Source: Candidatus Bathyarchaeota archaeon
GTDB lineage: Archaea; Thermoproteota; Bathyarchaeia; Bathyarchaeales; Bathycorpusculaceae
Assembly: GCA_963702095.1 (NCBI GenBank)
Contig: OY969706.1
Location: forward strand, 1,184,001-1,248,000
Direction: 5' to 3'
Length of the DNA stretch: 64,000 nt
Below, one piece after another: positions 7,643 through 51,888 of the stretch (positions are counted from its first letter, which is position 1; each line of letters begins with the position of its first letter). The notes under the pieces are model-generated. The model made no database searches and was not told where the DNA came from. It saw only the letters and a list, made by a program, of their open reading frames with translations. The position numbers and the translations under genes are program-made.

Positions 7643-9100
7643 CTAACCTTTGAGTGTAGCAATAAAGCCGTTGATGACATCTCTTATGGATTCGATAAGT
7701 GGATGCTGAATCTGGTCGGGGCTGACTTTTTCTAGGCGGTCCACCCGGAAGTAAATCGGCGGGTGCGGGTCCAGTCCCAGCCACTCTTGAACCCGGTAGG
7801 AGGGGGTGCGTTCGTAGAGTAAGCGTTGGAAACCGATTTTTTCCAGTGACCCCGCCAAAACCAGCGGGTTACCCACCACCTTGGCGGAGACTAAGTCGGC
7901 TCTTGCTTCGAAGAATTTGGCTATGAAAAATATCAACACCATCACAGCCCAGAAGTATGCAAAGAATAGAAAGGAGGAGAAGATCAGGGGGAACAGTTGG
8001 AAGAGGACGTAGAAGCGGAAGAGGAATTCAGCTGAAACTAACCCGTAGAGGATCAAGGGGTCTCGGCCTCGCAAGTGACCGAACTCGTGTCCCAGAACCC
8101 CCATTAATTCGTCTTCGTTTAGTTGTGCCATTATGCCTGTGGTTATGAGGACTAATCCCCGTTTGGGGCTGGGTCCAGAGGCTGCCGCGTTGGGAACCAT
8201 GGTGTTGGAAACCACTATTTCAGGCATGGGAAAACGGAAGCGGTCAGCGATGTTTTTGACTAACTCGTAAATGTTGACTTTTCTGGCTTTGAGGTTTTGA
8301 AGTTCACAGGGGACGCCGTATTTTGAGAAAACCTGTTGGGCTGAGTTAACGTCAACCTCGCCTTTTTTGGCGATGATTTCCTCGTAGATTTCTTTTTTTA
8401 TGGCGATGAGGGTTTCTCGGGGGTAAGTTTTGTTGAAATCGTTTTTTTCGTTTACCGGTAAGTAGAATTCGAGGAAGTGTATGATGGGGTTTTCTTTGGT
8501 TATGTGCCAGTCGGCGCTGCGTGCAATGAACCGGTTAGAGTAAAAGACAAAGATGAATTGTATGCCTATTAGAATTAGGGGGGCAATCCAGAACCCTGGT
8601 GGGTAAGCAGAGGATATGGTTATAAAAATGAGCATGCCGAAGACGATGAAGACTACGAAGAATAGAATCTGGGTCTCCAAAAAGAGGCGGTTAAATGACT
8701 TCGCTGGTTTAGTATAAGCTTCAGGGACGATTTCTTCGCCTTCCCGCCAAGCAAAGAATACAGTGGCGTTTTTGCTGTTTGCTGAGAAGATTTGTGTGGC
8801 TATTAGGATATCTTGTTTTGCTTCATCCACCGAAGTGCGTGATGCGGCGGAACTGACTGGAACGATTTTTAATTCGAATGGGCTGCCGCTTTTTACTTCT
8901 ACGTTTAGAAGGTGGTTGCCCGCTGAATTTACAATGGTGTAGGTTAGTTTTTCGCCAAGAACCGTTGATTCCCTGACGATGTCGATGAACCGCTGTTTCT
9001 GTGGGAGAATGTATTGGGTGTATATGAAATCGAATAGTTTCTGGTGGTAACTGGGTGGAACTTCAGGGGTAATTCTGAAAGTAAAAGAATTCGCCAACAT
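7643..9100 (-). CDS. htpX: M48 (HtpX-like) membrane zinc metalloprotease with N-terminal extension
   Basis: PNAAASG, HEFGH, EARAD and HPP. Confidence 0.85.
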   Translation of the reverse strand: MLANSFTFRITPEVPPSYHQKLFDFIYTQYILPQKQRFIDIVRESTVLGEKLTYTIVNSAGNHLLNVEVKSGSPFELKIVPVSSAASRTSVDEAKQDILIATQIFSANSKNATVFFAWREGEEIVPEAYTKPAKSFNRLFLETQILFFVVFIVFGMLIFITISSAYPPGFWIAPLILIGIQFIFVFYSNRFIARSADWHITKENPIIHFLEFYLPVNEKNDFNKTYPRETLIAIKKEIYEEIIAKKGEVDVNSAQQVFSKYGVPCELQNLKARKVNIYELVKNIADRFRFPMPEIVVSNTMVPNAAASGPSPKRGLVLITTGIMAQLNEDELMGVLGHEFGHLRGRDPLILYGLVSAEFLFRFYVLFQLFPLIFSSFLFFAYFWAVMVLIFFIAKFFEARADLVSAKVVGNPLVLAGSLEKIGFQRLLYERTPSYRVQEWLGLDPHPPIYFRVDRLEKVSPDQIQHPLIESIRDVINGFIATLKG

Positions 9101-9219
9101 TATAAAAAGTCAAAACCTACATTAAACCATCTTTTTCTGAGTTTATATCTCTATTGAAGTCATATCGCCTAGTGGTTTGGAGTTTTGGCGGCACATCGTA
9201 GGAGTTATGTGGATGCCGG

Positions 9220-9250
9220 CTTAGGGGAGATACTGTTAAGTTAAGTTACC
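9220..9250 (+). repeat. Left target-site duplication (9220-9228) plus left TIR (9229-9250)
   Basis: cttagggga|gatactgttaagttaagttacc. Confidence 0.93.
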
Positions 9251-9343
9251 TGAGGGGAAACTTATTGTTGATTTTAAATCTATCTTGTGTTTTCATAAAG
9301 GCAATATCTCGAATAGACTGTTTTTCTTTCAAGGGATAAAAAA

Positions 9344-10726
9344 ATGGCTGTCCCATATTTCAACACTAACACAATCTACTGTGGCGATAACGAAATAGTT
9401 CTCTCAAAATTTCCAGATGCAAGTGTTGATCTGATTTATGCTGACCCGCCATTCTTTTCTAACCAACAATATGAGATTATTTGGGGAGACGGTTACGAGA
9501 TTAGAGCTTTTGAAGACCGATGGAAAGGTGGAATAAACAATTATGTTGAATGGATGGTTCCAAAACTAGAGCAATGTCATAGAGTTCTGAAGACCTCAGG
9601 CTCTTTGTATTTACATTGTGACTGGCACGCAGGACATTACCTGAAGATACTTTTAGACCGCATTTTTGGGGAAAAACGATTAGTAAATGATATAATATGG
9701 AAACGTACAGCCGCGCATAGCGGCGAAGGAATAATCAAGAAGTATGGAACAATTCACGATAATATTTTGTTCTACACTAAAAGCGAAAAATACACATTTA
9801 ATCCTCAATATATGCCTTACGAACAAAAATACTTAGATAAATTTTACAACCATAAGGATGCAGATGGAAGAGTATGGCTTTCTCGTGATTTAACTGCTGC
9901 TGGGACTAGAAATGGTGAGTCAGGTAAACCTTGGAAGGGCATCGATGTAACAATGAAAGGTGTCCACTGGAAATATAGAGTATCAAAACTTGATGAATTA
10001 GAAAAGGAAGGCCGAATTTTTTTCCCAAAAAAAGCTGGAGGCATGCCAAGATATAAACAATATTTAGACGAAGCAAAAGGCATTTTACTTCAAGATATAT
10101 GGACTGATGTACCCGTTTTATCCTCTCATGCAAAAGAACGTCTAGGATACCCCACGCAAAAACCTGAGAGTCTCCTTGAAAGGATTATTAACACATCCTC
10201 AAATCCGATGGACATAGTTCTCGACCCTTTTTGCGGATGTGGAACAGCTATATCGATGGCACATAAAAAAGGGCGACGATGGGTGGGTATAGATATTTCA
10301 CCTACAGCTTGTGATTTGATGGAAAGACGAATGCGGAAACTTCACATATCACCAAACATGATGGGTATGCCACTAACAGAGGATGACCTGCGCAAGATAG
10401 CGGCTTTTGAGTTTCAGAATTGGGTCGTTAAAAGGCTCTATGGAAGAGTTACCGCAAGAAAAAGCGGTGACATGGGCATCGATGGGACAACATTTGAAGG
10501 AATCCCTATCCAAGTTAAGCAATCAGAGGACATTGGGAGAAACGTAATCGATAATTTTGAGACCGCACTGAGACGAAAAAAGAAAACAAAAGGTATAGTT
10601 GTTGCATTTAGTTTTGGGCGTGGTGCCTATGAAGAAATAGCTAGAGCTAAACTCAACGATAACTTAGATATTAAAGCTCTTTCTATCAAGGACTTGATAA
10701 AAAAGCAAGAGCAACAGCTTATTTGA
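9344..10726 (+). CDS. Beta-class N6A/N4C DNA methyltransferase fused to C-terminal Mrr-like PD-(D/E)xK nuclease domain
   Basis: DPPF, YPTQKP and LDPFCGCGT; C-term FEFQNW...DMGIDG...IQVKQ. Confidence 0.88.
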   Translation: MAVPYFNTNTIYCGDNEIVLSKFPDASVDLIYADPPFFSNQQYEIIWGDGYEIRAFEDRWKGGINNYVEWMVPKLEQCHRVLKTSGSLYLHCDWHAGHYLKILLDRIFGEKRLVNDIIWKRTAAHSGEGIIKKYGTIHDNILFYTKSEKYTFNPQYMPYEQKYLDKFYNHKDADGRVWLSRDLTAAGTRNGESGKPWKGIDVTMKGVHWKYRVSKLDELEKEGRIFFPKKAGGMPRYKQYLDEAKGILLQDIWTDVPVLSSHAKERLGYPTQKPESLLERIINTSSNPMDIVLDPFCGCGTAISMAHKKGRRWVGIDISPTACDLMERRMRKLHISPNMMGMPLTEDDLRKIAAFEFQNWVVKRLYGRVTARKSGDMGIDGTTFEGIPIQVKQSEDIGRNVIDNFETALRRKKKTKGIVVAFSFGRGAYEEIARAKLNDNLDIKALSIKDLIKKQEQQLI

Positions 10727-10871
10727 GCTTAACTCTTCCTTTTACTCTCTTTTCATATTCTTCTTCAGTTATGATGCCTTTTTCAATGAGTAAGTCTACT
10801 AGGGCTGATTGCATGTCGTCTAAGAGATCTATTTCTTCTAATGGTTCTCTTTCAATTTTTGTTTTCTTCAT
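10719..10871 (-). CDS. Small hypothetical protein (50 aa, SHOCT-like)
   Basis: LVDLLIEKGIITEEEY; ATG at 10871 overlaps the upstream RHH gene. Confidence 0.6.
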   Translation of the reverse strand: MKKTKIEREPLEEIDLLDDMQSALVDLLIEKGIITEEEYEKRVKGRVKLK

Positions 10872-11025
10872 GTTTCCCACCTTTCGCCAAGTATCCTTGT
10901 TCACTTAACCAATTCATAATAATGGTTCTTAAAGTATCACTGTAGCCCTCGCCCACTTTGCCAACAACTTCCTTATCCAAGATTTCAACCACTCCATCAG
11001 GCAGACTAACGATTATTTTCTTCAT
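10852..11025 (-). CDS. CopG/RHH-type DNA-binding protein (57 aa, absent from ORF track)
   Basis: MKKIIVSLPDGVVEILDKEVVGKVGEGYSDTLRTIIMNWLSEQGYL...; ATGA overlap with the transposase stop. Confidence 0.7.
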   Translation of the reverse strand: MKKIIVSLPDGVVEILDKEVVGKVGEGYSDTLRTIIMNWLSEQGYLAKGGKHEENKN

Positions 11026-11930
11026 TTACTAACCACCTTCAATCCTTCCTCTTTCTCAACTTTGTTACTCAAAGCATTAACTAAAAGCATGGCTTCTCTT
11101 TTTGTTGCTTCACTAATCAACCCTTTCCAAGTATTAGGCACGTTCATCCGTGCAGCTTGAGCGGGAGTTTTACCGCCTAGACTTTGATGCGGTCTAATAC
11201 AGTTATAATAGACGCTCCAACCTTCAAGCAACAGTTTTGTTGAATCATAGCTTTTTAGCCCTCTCATGCAACGTGTTCTATCTTTGAGTGTTCCATGCAA
11301 CCGCTCAACAATGTTGTTGGTTTCTCTTGCTCTAATCCCAACCCTCTGGACTAACTCAACCCTTGTATCCTTTCGCATGGTATAGAATACTTTGTTAAAA
11401 GCACTCTTGTAAACATGGCTTCCATCAACGAATACTGCTCTTGGGCGAACTTTGCTTTGGTCAACGCCTTTCTTGAAGATACTTACCGTATCTTCAAAAG
11501 TACGGGTATTTGAAAGGTGAGAAGCAACCATGAAACGTGTATCTTCGTCTATCATTTCCCAGAACCAAATACTGCGCCCTTCACAACTTAGCATAGTTTC
11601 GTCTTCATGCCATAGACCTGAAAGTTGAGGAATTTGAGACAGCATATATTCTTTGGCAAGCTCAGAATACTTCTTTATCCAATTCAGAACCGTAACTTGA
11701 GAAACCTTTTCCCCAAAAATCTGCTCAATATTCTTGCGAGTCTTTCTAAGAGACATACCATCGTAGTAGAAGTTTAGGGCAGCAACAATCATGTTTTGTT
11801 CGTTTCTCATTCGTGAGAATTTTCCGTTTGGTACAAAGATGTGACCGCAATCTTTACACTTGTAAGTTTGTTTGTTGTGGCGTATGCCTTTTTTGGTGAC
11901 GTTTTCTGAGTTGCAGTATTTACAGTTCAT
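11022..11930 (-). CDS. IS6-like DDE transposase with N-terminal Zn ribbon
   Basis: CKYC...CKDC, HTH, WHEDET, FVDG, NNIVERLHGTLKDR and YNCIRPHQSL; TATA-like TTATAAAT about 45 bp upstream. Confidence 0.9.
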   Translation of the reverse strand: MNCKYCNSENVTKKGIRHNKQTYKCKDCGHIFVPNGKFSRMRNEQNMIVAALNFYYDGMSLRKTRKNIEQIFGEKVSQVTVLNWIKKYSELAKEYMLSQIPQLSGLWHEDETMLSCEGRSIWFWEMIDEDTRFMVASHLSNTRTFEDTVSIFKKGVDQSKVRPRAVFVDGSHVYKSAFNKVFYTMRKDTRVELVQRVGIRARETNNIVERLHGTLKDRTRCMRGLKSYDSTKLLLEGWSVYYNCIRPHQSLGGKTPAQAARMNVPNTWKGLISEATKREAMLLVNALSNKVEKEEGLKVVSK

Positions 11931-12054
11931 CGGTTCACACACTCTTACAGCAATACTATAGTAAGCCTACAGTATTTATAACTTGTGGTACTCTCAAGGG
12001 ACTCTTACAACACTACCACAAAAGTTAAATCATATTTTACCCATAACATAAGCA

Positions 12055-12132
12055 TGGCGACTGGAAGGGGATTTGAACCCCCGATCAACCGCTTAGTGGG
12101 CGATGGCTATGTCCATGCTAAGCAATCCAGTC
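12055..12132 (-). tRNA. Atypical tRNA or tRNA-like gene, anticodon ACT, encoded CCA
   Basis: GACTGGA TT GCTTAGCATGGACATAGC C ATCGC CCACTAA GCGGT TGATC GGGGG TTCAAAT CCCCT TCCAGTC G CCA; all four stems pair. Confidence 0.85.
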
Positions 12133-12207
12133 ACTTATCGTTAGGGAAACACTGCGGGCGCAGGTCGGACGCAATGTTCCCTAACGGTCACTCCAGTCAA
12201 AGAATGA

Positions 12208-12927
12208 CTATGATACTTTTTCTGTTTGGAGTTTAGTCTTTTGTAGCTTTAACCATGCCTTAATCGCTTCAAGCTGTGACTCGACAAACTCTATGGCAAT
12301 TATGTCTTTTTTAACCCATATGTTATATTCATCGGACGAACCATAGGATACAACACCTGACGGTTGGCTTGGTTGCCTGACTTGAAATGATGAGGAAAGG
12401 TTAGCTGGTCTTTCTTCCATATCTTGTTCTGTCCTCCTATCGTCCTCGTAATTACTCTCTGAGGATGTTGACGGAAAACAGAATGCGACTGATTCAGTAT
12501 ATAGCTTGGCTACCTTTTCATACTTTGATTGTGCTATTTGTCTATCTACATGTAGCTTATCTACCAAATAACTGCAGAACTCGCCAGAAAGTGCTTTTGT
12601 TCCATAGTCCTTTCGTATCCTGACCCAAAGTTCAATTTTATTAAAAATAGTTTCTTTCGTAGCTTGAAGTTCTTGGGGTGTTAACGGATTAACAAGTTTT
12701 TCTGCAAGGTCTGTCGTATGTAGCAATCCTCTTCCTTCAGCAAGACCATATCTTTTAAGCGAGAACAAAATCATACCCGTCCACCCTCCACGAGCAGATA
12801 TGTTGAGCTTTTCGGCAAGTAGTTGAACGCTCATAGACTGACCTGAAAAATCATAGATTATTTTAGCCGTCTTGTATGCCTCGGGGACAGATATGTCGGG
12901 GTACTTATAACTGCCTATACTTCCCAT
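12208..12927 (-). CDS. Hypothetical wHTH protein (DUF5343-like), transposon cargo
   Basis: YPDISVPEA...LAEKL...SLKRYGLAEG...TDLAEKLVNP pattern; family assignment from memory. Confidence 0.6.
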   Translation of the reverse strand: MGSIGSYKYPDISVPEAYKTAKIIYDFSGQSMSVQLLAEKLNISARGGWTGMILFSLKRYGLAEGRGLLHTTDLAEKLVNPLTPQELQATKETIFNKIELWVRIRKDYGTKALSGEFCSYLVDKLHVDRQIAQSKYEKVAKLYTESVAFCFPSTSSESNYEDDRRTEQDMEERPANLSSSFQVRQPSQPSGVVSYGSSDEYNIWVKKDIIAIEFVESQLEAIKAWLKLQKTKLQTEKVS

Positions 12928-13080
12928 TACTAATACCTGCAATAGTATCTATAATAAGTTACTAATAAAGTTACTGTAAGGCGCAATTCACAGTATATTT
13001 TAGCGTATAAAACTACTTGAAAAACTTTCTGTAAATGTAAACCCCACTATAAAGTAGAAAAAATTTCAGAGTTTTTGTCG

Positions 13081-13111
13081 GGTAACTTAACTTAACAGTA
13101 TCCTTAGGGGA
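13081..13111 (-). repeat. Right TIR (13081-13102) plus target-site duplication (13103-13111)
   Basis: ggtaacttaacttaacagtatc|cttagggga. Confidence 0.93.
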
Positions 13112-13271
13112 TAGCGTTTATTAGTATCGAAATTCATTGTTAAAAATGCCGAACCGCGAGTTAAGGAGACTTTGTGGCGTCAAACGCTTGTTTGATACTG
13201 CAAAGATAATAACGGCTGACCCGTGACCCTCGTGTTCGAGATAGCCGATTATACAAGTTTAGAAAGGATGT

Positions 13272-13676
13272 TTGAAGTTGGCAGCATCTAAAAAAACTAT
13301 ACTCGTTGTGGATGATGACAAATCGATACTGCGAACCTTCACAAGGATTCTGCAGAAAAGCGGTTATGAAATAGTGACGGCAGAGACTGGGAAAGAAGCT
13401 ATAGAGAAAGCTGAGGTACAGCACTACGATTTAGCCCTCGTAGACATCAGGCTACCCGATATGGACGGCACTGATTTGCTTGCTAAACTCAAAAAGCAGC
13501 TTCAAAACACCGTGAAAATCATGATTACAGGTTTTCCGTCGCTTGAAACAGGCGTGAAAGCTCTTGATGAGGGTGCAGACGCCTATTTGGTTAAGCCAGT
13601 GAAGCCGCAGGAACTGCTTGTTCTCCTAGAAGAGAAGCTTAAGAACCGTGAAGAATCCGCGGAAGTCAGCCATTAA
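13272..13676 (+). CDS. Single-domain response regulator receiver
   Basis: LVVDDD, DIRLPDMDG, TG and YLVKP. Confidence 0.9.
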   Translation: MKLAASKKTILVVDDDKSILRTFTRILQKSGYEIVTAETGKEAIEKAEVQHYDLALVDIRLPDMDGTDLLAKLKKQLQNTVKIMITGFPSLETGVKALDEGADAYLVKPVKPQELLVLLEEKLKNREESAEVSH

Positions 13677-13744: not shown

Positions 13745-15034
13745 TTGAGTTTTAAGAGACAATTTCTGTTAGCCTATGTCCTCTTAGGATTGTTTGTTAT
13801 CTCTGCCGCTATGCCCTTCTATCAAGAAGCTGCTGAGCAGACTTCCGCTCTTTACTTAGCCCAAAAAGCATTTCCCAATTTAACGTTTAACCATCCAGTC
13901 GGCTTATTCTCAGACCCAACCGGGGCAAACAGGCTTTTTGTTATAGAGCAGTCTGGCGTAATCAAGGTCTTTAGCAACACCCAAAACGTATCTGGTTCGG
14001 CAGTGTTTCTCGACATAACAGACCGCGTTTTATACGGTGGCGAACAGGGCCTTTTAGGCGTAGCCTTCGACCCAAACTACACTCAAAGCCACAACTTTTA
14101 TGTCGACTACGTTGCAGATAACCCCCGCCGCTCGGTAATAGCCCGCTACACCGCAGACCAAAACAACCCTGACCTCGCATACCCCAACAGCCAGCAAGTC
14201 ATACTGGAGATAAGCCAGCCCTACAGCAACCACAAAGGCGGAGAACTCGCATTTGGACCCGACGGCTACCTCTATATCGGCGTCGGCGACGGCGGCTCAG
14301 AAGGCGACCCCAACGGCAACGGCCAGAACCGTTCAATCTTGCTTGGAAAAATCCTCCGAATAGACGTGAACTCGCAGTCGAACGGACGAAACTACGGCAT
14401 CCCCGCAGACAACCCATTTGTCGGCAACACTGATGGTTTCCTCGAAGAAATCTACGCTTACGGCTTACGCAACCCTTGGCGGTTCAGCTTTGACCCCGCA
14501 ACAGGTCAGCTTTGGGTTGGCGATGTGGGACAGGACAGGCTCGAAGAAATCGATTTGGTTGAGAAAGGCAAAAACTACGGGTGGAACACTATGGAGGGCA
14601 CACTCTGTTATAATCCGCCGAGCGGCTGCAACGGGACAGGGCTTACCCTGCCCATCTGGAATTATACGCATGATTTGGGCAACGCGATTATCGGCGGCTA
14701 CGTTTACCATGGCAAAGCCCTTCCCGCACTGGATGGGGCATACGTCTATGGCGACTATGGCTCAGGCAGAATATGGGCACTCCGCTATAGCGGCACCGCT
14801 GCAAACACGCTGATGGTTGATTCTGGGCAGAGCATTACCTCTTTTGGATTAGACCAAAACCAGGAACTCTACTTCACATCCTCCAACGGCAACATTTACA
14901 CCCTGTCTGCGCCTGCCGTGCCCGAGTTTCCCCTGCCGATTCAAACTGGACTCGCACTTATGCTTGTCCTTTTTGCCGTATTAATGGTTCTTGCTCGGCT
15001 GACCAAGGAACCCTTTAGAAAAATCAACCGGTGA
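13745..15034 (+). CDS. PQQ-dependent sugar dehydrogenase (GSDH/Asd family) with PEF-CTERM-like anchor
   Basis: GEQGLLG, NHKGG, FGPDGYLY, YGLRNPWR and VPEFP+TM+basic tail. Confidence 0.88.
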   Translation: MSFKRQFLLAYVLLGLFVISAAMPFYQEAAEQTSALYLAQKAFPNLTFNHPVGLFSDPTGANRLFVIEQSGVIKVFSNTQNVSGSAVFLDITDRVLYGGEQGLLGVAFDPNYTQSHNFYVDYVADNPRRSVIARYTADQNNPDLAYPNSQQVILEISQPYSNHKGGELAFGPDGYLYIGVGDGGSEGDPNGNGQNRSILLGKILRIDVNSQSNGRNYGIPADNPFVGNTDGFLEEIYAYGLRNPWRFSFDPATGQLWVGDVGQDRLEEIDLVEKGKNYGWNTMEGTLCYNPPSGCNGTGLTLPIWNYTHDLGNAIIGGYVYHGKALPALDGAYVYGDYGSGRIWALRYSGTAANTLMVDSGQSITSFGLDQNQELYFTSSNGNIYTLSAPAVPEFPLPIQTGLALMLVLFAVLMVLARLTKEPFRKINR

Positions 15035-51567: not shown

Positions 51568-51811
51568 TTTAACTGCCTCAAAAATCGAGCGTATTACACA
51601 TCTAATTACACATCTAATCTGTTCAAAAACGAATTAGAAGTAACTTAATCTGCTCAATTGTACATTCGAGTGAGCACTATTAATCAGTTTGTTGTAGCTT
51701 GATGGCAACTACTTCGTTAAATTGACCCTGTGCAATCAACACTTACAAGTTGCGGCAAATATCGGATATTAGAACTAAAAAGCAATCAAGCGGAAATATG
51801 AGAGAAAAAAG

Positions 51812-51888
51812 CGGGCCCGGTGGGATTTGAACCCACGATCTCCGGCTCCGAAAGGCCGACACCTTAATCCGTGCTAGGCTACGAGCCC
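51812..51888 (-). tRNA. tRNA-Arg(TCG) with one extra T in the anticodon loop
   Basis: GGGCTCG...TCGGC CTTTCGGA GCCGG...GTGGG TTCAAAT CCCAC CGGGCCC G. Confidence 0.85.

Follow-up and report, generated by a model that had tools for sequence, protein, structure and literature searches.

A conserved transposon-borne tRNA family in Bathyarchaeia with an arginine-type body and a serine-codon anticodon: a putative dual-identity tRNA

The stretch of 64,000 nucleotides analysed here, referred to as the window, comes from contig OY969706.1 of a Candidatus Bathyarchaeota archaeon (assembly GCA_963702095.1, positions 1,184,001 to 1,248,000 of the forward strand). At 12055-12132, on the minus strand, it contains a tRNA gene with an Arg(UCU)-type body and the anticodon ACU, carried inside a transposon. 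ARAGORN calls the gene tRNA-Ser(act), one of four tRNAs found in the window, and the Rfam model RF00005 places it above threshold (45.5 bits against a gathering score of 29). Direct reading confirms the cloverleaf described in the original prediction: an acceptor stem of seven Watson-Crick pairs (GACUGGA/UCCAGUC), the discriminator G73 followed by an encoded CCA, the T-loop UUCAAAU, a variable loop of 5 nt (UGAUC), and the anticodon loop CCACUAA, which reads C32, C33, A34, C35, U36, A37 and A38. The D-loop, AGCAUGGACAU, supplies G18, G19 and A20. The stems had been described as intact, and this holds for the acceptor stem; the fourth pair of the D stem is U-U, the sole blemish there, and the anticodon stem (AUCGC/GCGGU) includes one U-G pair. 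Two DNA contigs (151 nt) of the public sludge-metagenome run X1 cover 12045-12330 with no differences, loop positions 33-36 included, and lend weak independent support to the sequence because the run has a depth of 2 and is possibly the source sample.

A repeat search over 9000-13400 located two 25-nt arms, at 9229-9253 on the plus strand and 13078-13102 on the minus strand, that are 96% complementary. The nine bases flanking each arm on the outside, at 9220-9228 and 13103-13111, are identical (CTTAGGGGA). The matching terminal inverted repeats (TIRs) and the 9-bp target site duplication (TSD) therefore define 9229-13102 as a 3874-bp transposon. Its contents are, in order, a methyltransferase (MTase)-Mrr fusion, a three-gene transposase operon, the tRNA, two hairpins, and a 244-aa winged-helix protein. 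The fusion (9344-10726, plus strand) is a cargo protein of 460 aa that joins an MTase to an Mrr-type nuclease (Pfam N6_N4_Mtase, 4.3e-48; Mrr_cat, 1e-05) and is also recognized as PADLOC MTase_II (5.7e-71). The transposase (11022-11942, minus strand) is a DDE enzyme with an N-terminal zinc finger. It matches Pfam DDE_Tnp_IS240 (PF13610, 5e-20) and the NCBIfam IS6 family equivalog NF033587 (129.9 bits, cut-off 125), and an IS1/IS1595 zinc domain is present as well. Homologues start at MNCKYC, and the true start is likely the ATG at 11930. The transposase stop codon overlaps, as ATGA, the start of a 57-aa open reading frame (ORF; 10852-11025, minus strand) that is homologous by translation to an 83-aa ORF of metagenome locus L022 and found no family match in the Pfam, NCBIfam, and PADLOC scans. 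The final gene of the operon, taken from the ORF list, encodes 61 aa (10719-10904, minus strand); it has weak SHOCT matches only, below the cut-off, and adjoins the transposase in relatives too.

The tRNA is separated from the transposase by a spacer (11943-12054, minus strand) in which the repeat search found hairpin arms at 11974-11990 and 12014-12030, together with an AT-rich, TATA-like box ahead of the transposase. Within it, the block TTGGTA...TACCACAAG-TATAAATA is conserved in 15 of the 16 loci printed, the exception being L040, and may act as the transposase promoter. On the other side of the tRNA, RNA folding gives two conserved hairpins of 8 bp and about 17 bp (12139-12208, minus strand), with -69.3 kcal/mol and z = -5.5 for the segment 12050-12215. 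These hairpins recur in L003, L036, L067, and L087 with arms that have changed yet still pair. Directly upstream of the tRNA lies the cargo gene ORF244 (12208-12942, minus strand), classed as a winged-helix protein from its AlphaFold model (mean predicted local distance difference test score, pLDDT, of 74.6; residues 11-160 confident per block) and from Foldseek, where matches are weak and MarR-type only (E ~0.03). No Pfam, NCBIfam, or PADLOC match was found for it, and its hidden Markov model fails to reach the other families of ORFs upstream of the tRNA. The original prediction had placed the tRNA inside an insertion sequence, just upstream of the transposase. Its transposon-borne position, adjoining a DDE transposase, stands, and the vehicle proves to be a 3.9-kb cargo transposon rather than a minimal insertion sequence.

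The host genome carries a single copy of this transposon. Empty sites exist in many same-genus relatives (for example, G014, G030, G003, G005, G015, G025, and G026), where the flanking M48 peptidase and response-regulator genes lie ~150-560 bp apart compared with 4175 bp here. Beside the transposon, at 13745-15034 on the plus strand, lies a gene for a pyrroloquinoline quinone (PQQ)-type sugar dehydrogenase with a PEF-CTERM-like tail; since it is missing between the response regulator and a UbiA-like gene in several relatives (for example, G014 and G030), it represents a second variable insertion. Five further complete copies of 2.4-3.8 kb, at metagenome loci L022, L034, L039, L066, and L087, have the same TIR bracketing a tRNA of the same family. 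The repeats start with GATACTG in three of the six complete copies, the window's included, and with GATTCCG, GATTCTG, or GGTGCTG in the others. All six have a 9-bp TSD at different targets, five of them perfect (again including the window's) and one with a single mismatch. The mismatch belongs to L034, which spans 2.4 kb and, counted from the tRNA start, has its TIRs at -1790 and +597; it has no transposase gene, has kept the tRNA, and is a non-autonomous derivative.

Two other accounts of the element's boundaries were considered and dropped. A 15-nt inverted repeat (10943-10957 and 12095-12109) that would make the ends of an insertion sequence cut through the tRNA was rejected as a chance match; one arm lies in the 57-aa ORF, and about 9 of its 15 positions are kept in L022 in a by-eye reading made with no computed alignment. 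Insertion of a transposase beside a pre-existing tRNA was suggested by blastn homology among some of the loci, which starts ~45-210 nt past the tRNA; this account was discarded, as all complete copies have the tRNA between their TIRs.

Relatives of the tRNA were sought in several ways. A BLAST search of 60 related genomes with the tRNA and its flanking sequence recovered a homologue in G021 that is 81% identical (loop CUACUAA), a more distant one in G019 (loop CCGCUAA), and a partly decayed one in G052 (loop CUACUAA). The G052 copy (Candidatus Bathyarchaeum tardum; loci L005 and L024), at ~L005:1509-1690, lies ~100 nt from a perfect right-end TIR and appears to be a remnant of this transposon family, found in a different taxonomic family (f7, genus g16) of the same order. 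A scan of metagenome contigs, with a pattern that fixed the D-loop, C32, R34 (a purine), C35, U36, A37, A38, and the T-loop and constrained no stem, yielded 44 loci; a scan of viral contigs gave no matches. Metagenome loci and genome copies from Bathyarchaeia together comprise at least 40 distinct sequences. The distribution of the family is sporadic: a strict pattern occurs in 4 of 401 genomes of the order, and a relaxed R34 pattern in 5 of 120 genomes of the genus, a count that is an underestimate because the G333 copy escapes it.

Across the family, 95.7% of 798 stem cells pair, and 14 of the 20 pairs have changed on both sides, in 149 cells. None of 500 shuffles reaches the family value, and slid controls pair at 36-52%. 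The acceptor stem, which lies outside the search pattern, takes more than 10 different forms and is paired in 97.9% of cells. Recurrence of the same gene, with compensatory stem changes, in 40 distinct sequences excludes a chance origin of the window tRNA. The covariation also bears out the earlier view that structure is under selection rather than in decay. A decaying pseudogene of a passenger tRNA-Arg(UCU) would agree with A34 and C33, which are typical of broken tRNAs, and with the damaged T or D arms of G052 and G288. Such an origin, already disfavoured, is extremely improbable against the pairing of the 40 sequences. Moreover, the window and G021 tRNAs differ at 9 of 78 nt (hand count), all of them in loops, with zero stem substitutions despite ~20% divergence of flanks that are ~79% identical, and the non-autonomous L034 still keeps its tRNA.

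Seven relatives were found without any constraint on the anticodon: G021, G019, and G052 through BLAST and a pattern with NNNN, G333 through flank and transposase homology, and G405, G474, and G288 through a transposase protein search combined with the family covariance model. All seven carry RCU, as ACU in G021, G052, G333, G405, G474, and G288 and as GCU in G019. Since position 34 was free in these searches, the RCU anticodon is not an artefact of the pattern. Hence, homologues retain ACU or GCU, neither an ordinary arginine anticodon nor a random loop, as the prediction required. Of the 40 family sequences, 26 have U33 and 14 have C33. A34 occurs in 26 and G34 in 14, and the discriminator, never a pyrimidine, is A (26 sequences) or G (14); 27 sequences encode CCA.

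The body, in turn, is of arginine type. When the family covariance model was run over the whole host genome, the window tRNA itself scored 88 bits, followed by host tRNA-Arg(UCU) at 81.5, tRNA-Arg(CCU) at 76.4, tRNA-Arg(GCG) at 68.1, tRNA-Lys at 66.4, tRNA-Ile at 66.1, and tRNA-Arg(UCG) at 63.8 bits. The best three non-self matches are thus all tRNA-Arg. By comparison, tRNA-Ser(GCU) and tRNA-Ser(UGA), at 32.9 and 30.8 bits, are among the lowest-scoring of the recognized host tRNAs. The proposed arginine-type body is therefore upheld. Its closest relatives, Arg(UCU) and Arg(CCU), lie elsewhere in the genome, and the tRNA-Arg at 51812, to which it had been likened, ranks seventh. ARAGORN reports that gene, tRNA-Arg(UCG) at 51811-51888 on the minus strand, as 'tRNA-???' with a four-base anticodon (ttcg), while Rfam gives it 54.1 bits. 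By eye, its anticodon loop has 8 nt (CUUUCGGA), which could reflect a real additional base or an assembly indel. An unconstrained pattern also matched an ordinary Woesearchaeota tRNA-Arg(UCU) whose D and anticodon arms are the same. This match and the ranking of host scores indicate that the family was derived from tRNA-Arg(UCU) by a change at position 34 and often at 33. Collectively, the comparisons establish a putatively functional, selected tRNA gene, a descendant of an archaeal tRNA-Arg(UCU) and a recurrent cargo of TIR-bounded DDE transposons in Bathyarchaeia. We are highly confident of the descriptive part of this account, that is, of a real, selected, transposon-borne tRNA family that combines an arginine body with a serine-codon anticodon.

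Serine identity, and recognition by seryl-tRNA synthetase (SerRS), requires a long variable arm. The class II long arm is absent here, with 5 nt in its place, and is present in the host tRNA-Ser genes, which are 87 nt long. The arginine identity elements listed in PMC9976931 are A20, C35, U or G at position 36, and A or G at position 73. The window tRNA has A20, C35, U36, and G73, and the family shares all four elements together with the 5-nt variable loop. The search pattern dictated A20, C35, and U36 in the 44 metagenome loci; their occurrence in the window copy, G333, and G474 is independent of it. G288 keeps C35 and U36, and its A20 cannot be placed since G18 and G19 are lost. No family member has an arginine-codon anticodon, the anticodon being ACU or GCU throughout. 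The mismatch between anticodon and body is conserved across the family, a property shared with dual-identity tRNAs such as tRNAProX. Arginyl-tRNA synthetase (ArgRS) presumably has to tolerate U, C, or G in position 34 of its normal substrates. From the four arginine elements, the 5-nt variable loop, and this tolerance at position 34, charging with arginine and reading of AGY codons (Y, a pyrimidine) are predicted.

In the proposed mechanism, host ArgRS would charge the window tRNA with arginine, and the anticodon ACU (or GCU) would pair with the serine codons AGU and AGC. The outcome would be a dual-identity, mistranslating tRNA that causes low-level substitution of arginine for serine. C33 would probably damp its decoding efficiency, and the transposon or host might benefit through stress tolerance, defence, or harm to competitors. 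Arginine charging with AGY mistranslation is the best-supported mechanism, to which we would give slightly less than an even chance. A private code, in which AGY means arginine in the element's own genes, was tried and rejected, as AGY behaves as serine there. In 14 tRNA-linked transposases, AGY codons alternate with TCN and with threonine, alanine, asparagine, and glycine codons; in 25 homologues that lack the tRNA, the residues in the corresponding AGY-serine columns are S, A, V, T, Q, and N, with arginine outside the ten commonest. Column 280 of the 39-sequence transposase alignment has a mixture of R and S among the linked proteins and A, S, T, E, D, or Q in the tRNA-less homologues. As a separate observation, AGY-serine sites of the linked transposases fall in variable columns (serine kept in 13% of cells of the tRNA-less homologues), and TCN-serine sites fall in conserved ones (57% kept). 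The contrast could come from normal codon history, or AGY could be avoided where a serine is critical.

Codon usage bears on a different possibility, that the tRNA carries serine and provides the AT-richer transposon genes with AGU decoding. AGT occurs 15.2 times per 1000 codons in transposon genes against 7.2 in long host ORFs, the ACU-AGU pairing is Watson-Crick, and AGY acts as serine in the element's genes, all of which suit such a supply. The 5-nt variable loop, the position of host tRNA-Ser among the lowest scorers with the family model, and the GCU members, which duplicate the host tRNA-Ser(GCU), make it very improbable. AGA is likewise enriched (26.0 per 1000 codons; host, 8.6), and its excess fits an ancestral tRNA-Arg(UCU) that supplied AGA decoding. 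Codon supply leaves the purine at position 34 unexplained unless SerRS charges the tRNA, and the body argues against such charging.

Several points weigh against arginine charging with AGY reading. U33 is near-universal in tRNAs, and its replacement by C33 in 14 of 40 members may cripple ribosomal decoding. As AGY is serine in the element's genes, the element would mistranslate its own proteins. Among nine transposase homologues (69-85% identity) in other genomes of the taxonomic family, the tRNA accompanies three (G405, G288, and G474), and none was found within ~4-5 kb, under default filters, of the other six, G434, G448, G381, G248, G327, and G336, whose transposases are 69-79% identical. 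Hence, the tRNA is a frequent cargo that is dispensable for transposition. Signs of decay also occur, namely a broken T stem in G052 and a D arm without G18 and G19 in G288. Lastly, the arginine identity rules given in PMC9976931 derive from bacteria, yeast, plants, and mammals, with none from archaea.

The main rival is a tRNA-shaped RNA with no decoding role, which could be a processing signal for RNase P and tRNase Z that ends the upstream winged-helix transcript, or a regulatory mimic that binds ArgRS or another reader of the anticodon loop. In many of the 49 loci whose gene context was surveyed, some of them near-identical copies, the tRNA is preceded at 1-77 nt by the end of a same-strand ORF; these ORFs are ORF244, a tRNA-guanine transglycosylase (TGT)-fold protein, and families f26, f27, o175b, and f63. 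In the window's subgroup, the two conserved hairpins intervene between upstream ORF and tRNA, and no TATA-like box is evident by eye upstream of the tRNA. C33 in 14 of 40 members and the need of the element's genes for AGY as serine also speak for an RNA outside translation. A processing handle, however, would work with any anticodon loop. The loop C32-Y33-R34-C35-U36-A37-A38 has nonetheless been retained by every one of the seven relatives found without constraint, even as their stems diverged and compensated. G18, G19, the T-loop, and the encoded CCA (27 of 40) are those of a working tRNA, an argument limited by the search pattern, which fixed the D-loop GGA and the T-loop GTTCRAATCC. In the GCCGAGG subgroup, furthermore, tRNA and neighbour are divergently oriented, and an AT-rich region of its own precedes the tRNA. 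We regard a non-decoding RNA as unlikely, although far from negligible.

Gene context at the other loci places the tRNA in varied company. The transposase family occurs in 28 of the 49 loci, and in 18 of those 28 it follows the tRNA immediately, in the same orientation. A protein of 412-452 aa occurs beside the tRNA in 17 loci; a winged-helix protein of 163-175 aa is present in 12, and relatives of ORF244 and of the MTase in 8 each. In five loci (L023, L041, L056, L065, and L071), an SSV-type integrase (Pfam Phage_integr_3, 1.2e-31) adjoins the tRNA, 105-350 nt downstream and facing it, for example at L041:2593-3531 on the minus strand. These integrase-linked loci form the subgroup with GGATGG or GCATGG acceptors and the anticodon GCU, so that family members are also found at or in integrase-type elements. 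The 412-452-aa protein is absent from the window's transposon copy and has no Pfam, NCBIfam, or PADLOC match. The predicted structure of its 452-aa form has a TGT fold (pLDDT 80.6; 177 PDB matches at E <=0.001), the best matches being QTRT1 and the Zymomonas TGT (E ~4e-7), and the residues CxCxxC...H are invariant. Examples are L073:1111-2466 on the plus strand and L043:3209-4444, and the protein is usually accompanied by the 163-175-aa winged-helix protein. The TGT-fold protein could modify the family tRNA or, like DpdA, DNA.

Such company also raises the idea of a decoy, or resistant variant, against an anticodon-loop nuclease or another system that targets tRNA-Arg, carried alongside defence-type cargo. 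The MTase-Mrr fusion, a Cas4/MmcB-like nuclease (a weak match, below Pfam cut-offs), and the TGT-fold protein are defence-like, and apart from positions 33 and 34 the loop is that of Arg(UCU). Nevertheless, no nuclease partner was identified, a tRNA with RCU would be unable to replace a cleaved tRNA-Arg(UCU) for AGA and AGG, and the literature searched yielded no known archaeal system of this kind. A decoy role is therefore improbable. Arginine charging with AGY reading can be extended in a different direction: the transposon family may spread a ready-made mistranslation device, an arginine-accepting tRNA that reads AGU and AGC and creates regulated serine-to-arginine ambiguity in recipients. 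Because ArgRS presumably ignores position 34, no extra synthetase would be needed. Given the company of restriction-modification and TGT-fold genes, the ambiguity might serve stress, defence, or competition. This extension is possible, though we consider it doubtful.

The significance of the family lies in a purine, A34 or G34, on an arginine body that is conserved by selection and carried by a transposon with clear insertion footprints. Because the transposon is mobile, the trait can move between genomes. If the tRNA is charged with arginine, archaea would be able to acquire genetic-code ambiguity by horizontal transfer, and the family would comprise the first mobile and the first archaeal dual-identity tRNA. 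It would also allow the treatment of C33 and A34 by ArgRS, EF1A, and the ribosome to be examined in a natural system. Should the RNA play no part in decoding, its conservation in tRNA shape by transposons, non-autonomous copies included, would still make it a new kind of transposon component.

Transposon-borne tRNAs of this type have few counterparts. The literature searched contains no arginine-bodied tRNA with ACU or GCU and no tRNA on an archaeal transposon, although subscription journals and unsearched supplements may hold one. Only three A34 tRNAs are given among 10,517 archaeal tRNAs in a preprint (10.64898/2026.05.15.725136), all in four-codon boxes and none in a two-codon box. In the literature consulted, the dual-identity tRNAs described are few, namely bacterial tRNAProX, tRNASec/tRNACys hybrids, and nematode nev-tRNAs, and a term search of a 2024 review (PMC11415595) finds 'archaea' only in two passages on EF1A. 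The nev-tRNAs (PMC4300185) likewise combine mismatched parts, with glycine or isoleucine anticodons on a leucine-type class II body; they are eukaryotic, chromosomal, and involve a different pair of amino acids from the archaeal family.

As a vehicle, the element resembles the IS6 family in a transposase past the NCBIfam cut-off, in its DDE_Tnp_IS240 domain, and in having TIRs and target duplications. It differs from IS6 elements and cargo transposons in its length of 2.4-3.9 kb, in several passengers besides the tRNA, and in a transposase operon with two small ORFs. According to ISfinder descriptions, IS6 elements make an 8-bp target duplication and have short inverted repeats that start with GG; here the duplication is 9 bp, and only the GGTGCTG copy starts with GG. 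In being cargo, the tRNA is like those of phages, plasmids, and other mobile elements, and the family probably began in the same way, as an AGA-reading tRNA-Arg(UCU). To our knowledge, such mobile-element tRNAs keep a matching anticodon and body. With its consistent purine at position 34, the family, unlike them, no longer reads arginine codons.

The closest parallel is bacterial tRNAProX (tRNAProA, tRNAProN, and tRNAProT of Streptomyces and Kitasatospora). The tRNAProX are proline bodies with alanine, asparagine, or threonine anticodons that were shown to mistranslate (PMC10404621), and all have A34, with A33 instead of U33 (PMC11415595). Both groups thus place one amino acid's anticodon on another's body, form conserved families of accessory genes rather than one-off mutants, have A34, and replace U33 (by A33 in tRNAProX and by C33 in 14 of 40 members here). 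The tRNAProX are bacterial and pair a proline body with alanine, asparagine, or threonine anticodons, whereas the present family is archaeal and pairs an arginine body with a serine anticodon. Their mistranslation is demonstrated, and that of the archaeal family is predicted from sequence. Furthermore, no aminoacyl-tRNA synthetase domain, as of a dedicated synthetase, was found among the neighbours scanned, which also differs from tRNAProX; a co-encoded synthetase may not be required, since ArgRS would tolerate any base at position 34. Unlike tRNAProX, the archaeal family tRNA resides inside a transposon bounded by TIRs and TSDs.
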